From the NCBI GenBank assembly GCA_964016885.1, contig OZ024762.1, positions 372,001-436,000 of the forward strand: a stretch of DNA of 64,000 bases. Reading direction: 5' to 3'. The notes under the pieces were generated by a model. That model did not search any database. It saw nothing but the letters and a program-made list of their open reading frames with translations, and was not told where the DNA came from. Each line of letters begins with the position of its first letter. Within the stretch, counting starts at the first letter, position 1. A program made the position numbers and the translations under genes. Origin of the DNA: Eledone cirrhosa (Eukaryota). Below are positions 16,869 through 17,725 of this stretch, in pieces.

Positions 16869-16932
<64 letters not shown>

Positions 16933-16973
16933 CGAAACATTAGTCAATTGCATGAACTCATAATCCTTTATTT

Positions 16974-17029
16974 ACTGCTATATATATTTCGATGATAGCC
17001 GTTGAATGGCTATGACCTCATCAGGCAGT
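16974..17029 (-). ncRNA. Minimal type I hammerhead ribozyme motif within a ~170-bp TA-embedded element (16928-17096)
   Basis: Minus strand: actgc-CTGATGA-ggtcatagcc(attcaac)ggctatcatc-GAAA-tatata-TA-gcagt. Confidence 0.8.
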
Positions 17030-17725
17030 TAGTCAGTTCTTAGATATGCCAGCTCTGTGTTTATAGTGTTGATGGTATCAGAGACTTGGGACATATCCCT
17101 CTACTGCAGATTAGCAATGTGTGTGTATGTATATGTATATATGTGTATATATACACACACATACATATACACACACATACATATACACACACACATTGCT
17201 AATCTGCAGTAGAGGGACCAGAAAGGCCGACAATCAAAGTAGTACTCAATATACGGTATGATGTAGAGTCTGTATATTAGTGAAATAGACAATAGACTGT
17301 TAACTCAGGTAGTTTGGTCTAGGCTGAAACTGTTGTTGTTATTGTTGTTGTAGATGTTGTTATTGTTGATGTTGTTGTAGATGTTGTTATTGCTGTAGAT
17401 GTTGCAGATATTGTTGTTGATGTTGTTGTAGATGTTGTAGATGTTGTTGTTGTTGTTGTTGTAGATGTTGTTGTTGTTGTTGTTGTAGATGTTGTTGTTG
17501 TTGTTGTAGATGTTGTTATTGTTGTTGTTGTTGTTGTAGATGTTGTTATTGTTGTTGTAGATGTTGTTGTTGCTGTTGTTGTTGTTGTAGATGTTGTTAT
17601 TGTTGTTGTAGATGTTGTTGTTATTGCTGTAGATATTGCAGATGATGTTGTTGATGTTGTAAACTACTTGACTTATTCAATGAAACAAGTTGATCTTTAT
17701 TTCTTCCTCAACAGCTGTTTACTGT

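Follow-up and report, generated by a model that had tools for sequence, protein, structure and literature searches.

A young, hammerhead-bearing insert family of probable Penelope-like type next to (TA)n tracts of the octopod Eledone cirrhosa

Penelope-like elements (PLEs) carry hammerhead ribozymes near their 3′ ends; the Naiad and Hydra clades, both of which occur in Octopus, prefer (TA)n as a target and Neptune elements are microsatellite-biased (PMC8557442; this and the other sources are cited for their available parts). In the Octopus Hydra element the hammerhead lies approximately 36 nt from the 3′ end (PMC8557442), and 31 recently active PLE families have been reported for O. vulgaris (PMC13282606). 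Penelope elements contain inverted pLTRs of 181–218 bp with an optional tail, and the pLTRs are sufficient for mobilization in trans (PMC3846280). A PLE protein studied in purified form was found to nick AT-rich DNA, to begin reverse transcription at internal sites of the RNA and to use uncut RNA, and the hammerhead of that PLE needs the protein to cut (PMC11167929). The non-LTR retrozymes of animals, for which both a PLE origin and a PLE helper have been proposed, are arranged in tandem, usually have canonical hammerheads and form self-paired circles (PMC7229834; bioRxiv 10.64898/2026.07.22.740005). Animal genomes are known to contain PLE hammerheads in abundance, and the finding of another family was therefore to be expected.

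The window analyzed here (a 64,000-nt stretch of contig OZ024762.1 of E. cirrhosa) contains two copies of a short insert, termed element A, which represent a genuine young family of inserts carrying a hammerhead, probably of PLE type. The hammerheads of PLEs from D. willistoni, D. virilis and Aedes aegypti share with that of A the type I order, a short helix I, a long helix II, a palindromic helix III and predicted action as a dimer (PMC4209133). The closest published ribozyme is that of the D. willistoni PLE, which agrees with A in its 8-nt palindrome, its AUA site and the pairing of U15.2 with A16.2 (PMC4209133). The A motif differs from these insect motifs in having no extra nucleotide after A9 (also absent from some published PLE motifs; PMC8557442, PMC4209133), a C.C mismatch at position 4 of helix II and a palindrome composed purely of A and U. 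None of the 56 rows of Fig. S3 of PMC4209133 (none of them cephalopod) has an A-type helix III, and a helix III of A and U only is likewise missing from the 34 motif rows in File S2 of PMC8557442. The ribozyme subtype of A is absent from these two published tables, yet it lies within the known variation of PLEs.

Hydra-clade EN+ PLEs, including Hydra-1_Obim of Octopus bimaculoides, share with A the (TA)n target and the position of the hammerhead close to the 3′ end (in two Hydra consensus sequences the distance is 36 and 47 nt, as judged by eye, versus 50 nt in A), and several members, like A, do without the extra nucleotide; these have a longer palindromic helix III (PMC8557442). In contrast to Hydra-1_Obim, A has no ORF and there is no visible similarity between the two, nor does A resemble, by eye, the published 3′ ends of the cephalopod Hydra consensus sequences (PMC8557442). 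The Octopus Naiads (Naiad_Obim, _Ovul and _Omin) have the (TA)n preference in common with A, and some Naiads carry widely spaced core halves, but the Octopus Naiad 3′ ends lack the A motif and cephalopod Naiads have been described as old remnants (PMC8557442). A Naiad origin of A was rejected, since the published cephalopod Naiad 3′ ends do not match A by eye (PMC8557442). The literature search, mostly outside subscription journals, found no paper devoted to octopus hammerheads, and the sole cephalopod hammerhead met there was that of Hydra-1_Obim, which differs from A (PMC8557442, available part). Ribozymes are unmentioned in the available main text of a paper on O. vulgaris repeats (PMC13282606), and the A family may already be present in its repeat library, among the PLEs, unclassified SINEs or unknowns.

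Element A and its insertion sites

The two copies and the DNA regions adjacent to them are as follows:

16929..17096, minus strand: element A, copy 1 (168 bp, by alignment)
52082..52248, minus strand: element A, copy 2 (167 bp, by alignment)
16869..16928: (TA)30 run without imperfections, adjoining the RNA 3′ end of copy 1
17096..17217: inverted duplication next to copy 1, at the junction on its RNA 5′ side (arms 17096–17152 and 17161–17217)
52052..52290: imperfect TA-rich tract, interrupted by copy 2
16967..16972, minus strand: AAUAAA hexamer directly after helix I, seen in the sequence

An earlier note on this DNA had described two copies with nearly the same ends lying next to TA repeats. 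Both copies are present and their ends nearly coincide, but the coordinates given for copy 2 were off by 2 nt, and position 16928, taken as the start of copy 1, still belongs to the (TA)30 run as its final base, the unit beginning at 16929. The assignment of the terminal ATAT (17093–17096 and 52245–52248) to the element or to the target is ambiguous. We infer that the minus strand is the RNA sense of the element; on it, the AAUAAA hexamer is a possible poly(A) signal. The unit has a GC content of 0.35 (modelled part). As had been claimed, no long ORF lies within it, and a Pfam search with its three minus-strand frames gave no match.

Comparison of the copies (BLAST and alignment) revealed 96.4% identity, with 5 substitutions and 1 indel. 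They are the most alike among the 38 interspersed repeat pairs of at least 90 bp in the window, which bears out the view that the family is young. Divergence per copy is roughly estimated at 1.5%, and this would place the insertions, by the calibration of PMC13282606, at very approximately 4 million years ago. The presence of only two copies, 35 kb apart and in the same orientation, is what points to a local DNA-level duplication of an old insertion, rather than transposition, as the source of the second copy. However, the identity ends at the edges of the element, the flanks have only TA repeats in common, and the host repeat into which copy 2 is inserted is otherwise continuous, making such a duplication extremely improbable. 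Extrapolation of the local density gave approximately 900 to 300,000 copies, an unreliably wide range that applies only if this density held genome-wide. The lower genome size used in this calculation, 2.3 Gb, is our assumption. The upper one (2.8 Gb) was taken from PMC13282606.

With respect to the insertion sites, TA repeats adjoin copy 1 on its left side as well as copy 2, but the right side of copy 1 is occupied by the inverted duplication, the arms of which are identical in their first 30 nt, with approximately 55 nt of flank duplicated. The (TA)30 run was likely the priming target of copy 1. No flanking target site duplication (TSD) was seen at copy 1, and the apparent TSD of copy 2 is not above chance, its score being reached at 731 of 2412 other ATATA sites. 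Both A copies and two of the related elements described below (B2 and C) end in TA tracts, and the third (B1) in a short imperfect tract; ends of (TA)4+ runs cover approximately 7% of the window. The sequence on the other side of the (TA)30 run (16330–16868, minus strand) is a broken remnant of a Tc1/mariner-like transposase gene which ends at this run and has a weak match to the Sleeping Beauty transposase (E 0.2).

The hammerhead of element A and its siblings

Each copy of A carries a hammerhead:

16974..17029, minus strand: type I hammerhead of copy 1 (C3 at 17024)
52126..52181, minus strand: type I hammerhead of copy 2 (C3 at 52176, A17 at 52131)

In copy 1, helix I is formed by 5 Watson-Crick pairs (17029–17025 with 16978–16974), followed by the core CUGAUGA (17024–17018), helix II (17017–16991; 3 pairs, a C.C mismatch at 17014/16994 and then 6 pairs) and GAAA (16990–16987) leading into UAUAUA. 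U16.1 is at 16980 and A17 at 16979, within an AUA site, and the predicted cut falls between 16979 and 16978, placing the cut site of A 50 nt from the end abutting (TA)n. Helix II of copy 2 has 8 pairs beyond the mismatch, versus 6 in copy 1. Helix III consists of 2 pairs and a 4-nt loop, which together make up the 8-nt AU palindrome AUAUAUAU.

The type I order is complete, with the CUGANGA core, GAAA and an NUH site all present. By the criteria of PMC4209133 (available part), A shows the traits of PLE-style hammerheads: a helix II of 9–11 pairs, a helix I of 5 pairs, a G10.1-C11.1 pair and a palindromic 15.2-16.2 pair plus loop 3. No extra nucleotide separates A9 from position 10.1, where a covarying pair follows directly. 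The description of the motif as a complete minimal type I hammerhead therefore holds as to completeness and type, with the reservation that helix III has only 2 pairs and a 4-nt loop and the extra nucleotide after A9 is absent; the 5-bp stem I, palindromic stem III and AUA site were all recovered on the minus strand. The motif is not expected by chance: it was obtained in 0 of 40,000 dinucleotide shuffles of the A unit, at each of three thresholds, and the block-shuffled window yielded 0.017 matches per shuffle (60 shuffles).

A search of Rfam, proposed in the earlier note as a check, failed to support the motif, no hammerhead family matching A. There were 0 matches at the gathering score; the A unit alone gave one irrelevant match and no hammerhead family up to E=10; and an E-value scan of the window produced, among the best 150 of 554 matches, only microsatellite-driven ones. 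This miss is a gap in the library and not a structural failure, and the subtype that it concerns supplies a ready search pattern. A comparison of core with flank conservation, also proposed there, is powerless on A alone because only two copies are available (1/56 versus 5/112, p=0.35), but it was passed across the sibling families.

Two further features of the unit were considered and set aside. A hammerhead 3′ half-site occurs on the plus strand of A (16931–16945 and 52084–52097), but a second, plus-strand hammerhead was rejected, since the unit contains no plus-strand CUGANGA (5′ half). The half-site may be a mirror of a UUUCG for which the folding model allows pairing with the core GAAA (duplex p of 0.02 and 0.01 for A, 0.04 for C and 0.55–0.57 for B); its role as an off-switch was not established, the ensemble probability being 0.22 at most. 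A 12-mer resembling a primer binding site (PBS), which we take to be a tRNA-Met site, lies on the opposite strand, behind no LTR, and is exact in copy 2 only. It was considered a chance occurrence, as near matches exist at 3 unrelated sites.

A descriptor scan, combined with a scan for the core letters alone, revealed four further hammerheads of the same design in the window, belonging to two other families (B and C):

46710..46858, minus strand: family B, copy B1 (C3 at 46817; same design, other stems)
11187..11641, both strands: family B, copy B2, two head-to-head hammerhead units (C3 at 11293, minus, and 11453, plus)
8356..8475, plus strand: family C (C3 at 8364; same design, ends in (TA)n)

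Copy B1 is joined to an oppositely oriented piece (46860–47082, plus strand), which has the B tail at its end, by (TA)n near 47083, and whose last 63 nt match the tail of B2 (p 0.001). The arms of B2 are 99% complementary and meet at a 64-nt palindrome; the tail is confined to the right arm, and (TA)n borders both sides. The B2 region (11187–11641) folds as an extended hairpin (z −3.0). The 5′ ends of the B copies are unequal, with 41 versus about 89 nt before the core. The family C motif is degraded at the cleavage site. Outside the ribozyme, A has no significant similarity to B or C (p 0.07–0.44).

A, B and C have the core in common, as well as a C.C mismatch that follows the third pair of helix II and a helix III formed by an AU palindrome. 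Their stems differ compensatorily, with 8 of 11 pairs changed on both sides and 64/64 cells of the alignment paired, a level reached by 0 of 500 shuffles; slid controls were 20–56% paired. The alignment comprised six rows (A1, A2, B1, B2+, B2− and C) representing about four independent lineages. Its structure was derived from A; B1 had been found by a descriptor that requires pairing, and B2 and C without that requirement. The helix III pairs are invariant across the six rows, and family B carries A-U at 10.1-11.1.

A sequence-only pattern matches exactly the six motif sites in the window and nothing in 100 shuffles. A slightly stricter version had 19 matches in prokaryote genomes, where approximately 31 are expected by chance, and no match in a phage collection. 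Both helix II stems form in 6/6 window sites versus 0/19 prokaryote matches, which argues that the hammerhead fold is under selection in this octopod lineage. A covariance model of the six motifs recovers only those six (next best E ~1). Judged from these alignments, the subtype with three pairs, C.C mismatch, long stem and AU-palindromic helix III appears to be kept by compensatory change in three octopod families.

The suggestion that this hammerhead is suited to action as a dimer agrees with the folding of A, B1 and B2. The double hammerhead of A is predicted to lie 12.6 kcal/mol below two active monomers, and it is the unconstrained predicted minimum for B1 and B2; dimer folding favors, by computation only, intermolecular helices I and III. 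Pairing of the UGAUGA core of A with helix II is a predicted misfold, lower than the active dimer by 2.8 kcal/mol, and on this model A may be a poor cutter.

The proposed PLE link and mode of insertion

We consider it somewhat favored, with a rough probability of 0.55, that A is the pLTR-sized end of a (TA)n-targeting PLE and constitutes a fixed-length unit copied in trans by PLE enzymes, in the manner of a solo pLTR or of a non-autonomous derivative of a PLE. Because none of the A, B and C copies in the window is linked to an RT or GIY-YIG endonuclease sequence, membership in the PLEs is argued from anatomy. The hammerhead lies near the 3′ end, at the distance given above for A and with 47–50 nt from the cut site to the element end in B. 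The link to PLEs, first suggested from A, is now backed by the sibling elements: an inverted pLTR layout with a junction palindrome is seen in B2, whereas A itself shows only an inverted flank duplication, and this hallmark reaches A only via the ribozyme design because the remainder of A is dissimilar. The Penelope elements of Adineta vaga are comparable to A and B in pLTR size (near 180–220 bp), in the occurrence of solo pLTRs and in a TATATATA box inside the pLTR, and to B2 in head-to-head inversion, junction palindrome and one-sided tail (PMC3846280). They differ from the situation described here, where no parent ORF is linked to the copies and A has nothing beyond its inverted flank duplication. 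The frame at 46862–47080 was tried as the C-terminus of a GIY-YIG domain and rejected, as it has no Pfam, homolog, profile or atlas support.

According to this proposal, a minus-strand transcript of A would be bound by a PLE RT/GIY-YIG protein, whose endonuclease would nick (TA)n and whose RT would start at a fixed internal site approximately 50 nt past the ribozyme, thus setting the end of A at 16929/52082. Copying would proceed to a fixed RNA 5′ end approximately 70 nt before the core, given by a transcription start or a short master copy. The second junction would result from annealing to TA or else, at copy 1, from a template jump with backward copying of approximately 55 nt of flank. Since the cut site lies within A, the RNA template would have been uncut or circular. 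An uncut template fits a ribozyme that would have little activity as a monomer and would depend for most of its cutting on a double hammerhead formed via the AUAUAUAU palindrome, or on the help of protein. A unit so short, young and fixed in its ends would be a compact substrate for studying PLE cis signals and the role of the ribozyme in insertion.

The same enzymes could have acted with no separate non-autonomous family, if the A copies are 5′-truncated insertions of a full-length autonomous PLE in which the RT stopped twice at one place, such as the pLTR boundary or the hairpin into which the first 60 nt (the RNA 5′ part) of A fold. PLE insertions are mostly 5′-truncated, and genomic minimal hammerheads are mostly single motifs of truncated PLEs (PMC4209133, PMC8969392, bioRxiv 10.64898/2026.07.22.740005); the unequal 5′ ends of family B also fit this explanation. 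A 21-codon frame, open from the 5′ end of A with its stop just before helix I, could be the end of an ORF, but it has no Pfam match, a stop-free stretch of that length is common by chance, and in the Hydra consensus sequences examined the stop codon lies well over 100 nt before the hammerhead (PMC8557442). Identical ends are unlikely under random truncation: the probability of two truncations ending within 4 nt is 0.01–0.09, a figure to be read in the light of the fact that the finding was picked for its shared ends. On balance, truncation seems to us rather unlikely, while deserving to be kept in view.

Animal non-LTR retrozymes are similar to A in being short, non-coding and low in GC, with a type I hammerhead and occasional solo monomers (PMC7229834; bioRxiv 10.64898/2026.07.22.740005). 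The A copies could be such solo monomers, generated when the RNA of a tandem array self-cleaves, circularizes and is reverse-transcribed once round. Size and GC content fit (150–450 bp, <50% GC; PMC7229834), dispersed monomers are common and retrozymes are close to pLTRs (bioRxiv 10.64898/2026.07.22.740005); moreover, a single turn of the circle accounts for both the fixed length and the permutation of the unit relative to the cut site, and the predicted dimer fold suits tandem transcripts. However, both A copies are solo, with no tandem copy in the window, the unit has no exact terminal redundancy, and its ribozyme is non-canonical, lacking the 6-bp/4-bp layout. Circular folds of A (n=8) gave z from −0.11 to +1.08, no better than shuffles, with approximately 50% of bases paired on the hammerhead strand, in contrast to the highly self-paired circles of retrozymes (PMC7229834). 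We regard this origin as improbable; the retrozyme half of the analogy drawn in the earlier note fails for want of a tandem array in the window and of a self-paired circle, and on present evidence A should not be filed as a retrozyme. Classification as an LTR retrozyme, which would call for a type III hammerhead within two LTRs along with a PBS, a PPT and a 4-bp TSD, was rejected, as A is of type I and has no LTRs.

A SINE-like element with a captured hammerhead, moved by a non-PLE LINE of the microsatellite-targeting R4/Dong type, was also considered. In O. vulgaris, Dong-R4 belongs to the LINE groups with the highest activity (PMC13282606). A fragment at 47598–47909 reads like a restriction-like endonuclease by its motifs, but the call has no Pfam or PDB support. 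Neither a tRNA-like head nor a LINE-like tail was matched in Rfam, and the tailed inverted structure of sibling B2 is typical of PLEs (PMC3846280), so that this origin appears highly unlikely.

A bolder version of the trans-copied PLE unit, in which A would be a ribozyme SINE derived from PLEs that propagates itself in octopods, perhaps numbers thousands to tens of thousands of copies and has a hammerhead subtype tuned to the target, is very doubtful. Since helix III is itself a (UA)n run, the cleaved RNA would end in (UA)4, able to anneal to nicked (TA)n, and, if this were true, PLE hammerheads would take part directly in the choice of target. Both A copies extend 50 nt past the cut site, which argues against such tuning, and no copy ending at the cut site was found in the window.

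Host gene and neighboring repeats

Exons of an ELKS/ERC/CAST gene (residues 329–1089) map to 39350–57720 on the plus strand. The one adjacent to copy 2 is:

52354..52506, plus strand: ELKS/ERC exon, neighbor of copy 2

This coding exon is 92% identical to ELKS of Octopus bimaculoides and, over a shorter stretch, 91% identical to that of Argonauta, which marks the host as an octopod. Copy 2 is intronic in ELKS and antisense to it, approximately 105 nt before the exon. ELKS residues 1–328 were not found in the window, and copy 1 therefore probably lies in a long upstream intron. Downstream of the exon near 49190, at 49330–50030, the 3′ end of this exon is repeated in tandem.

The four intact unpaired hammerheads (17024, 26590, 46817 and 52176) are all antisense to ELKS (p=1/16), and, of those in sense orientation, that of C is degraded and that of B2 is locked in an inverted pair. 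This bias hints at selection against self-cleaving motifs in the host pre-mRNA. The hammerhead at 26590 (C3; region 26505–26760, minus strand) is a classic minimal one with a C-G helix III and a GUC site, and it sits behind a pyrimidine-rich stretch. The frame upstream of it reads, presumably, as the C-terminus of a PLE endonuclease, and has no Pfam support.

A small repeat family is found beside TA tracts at 27250–27385, 11071–11122 and 33797–33839. A degraded hammerhead-like core is present at 27310 (minus strand), with a helix III region resembling Hydra-clade motifs. The fragment at 47598–47909 (plus strand) is an intronic 104-codon frame with zinc-knuckle and PD-like motifs, which we take to suggest an R4/Dong-type LINE endonuclease. 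A fairly young repeat pair (12928–13134 and 34103–34313; 90.5%) is unrelated to A, and its copy at 12928–13134 runs into sequence that presumably represents the end of a LINE ORF.
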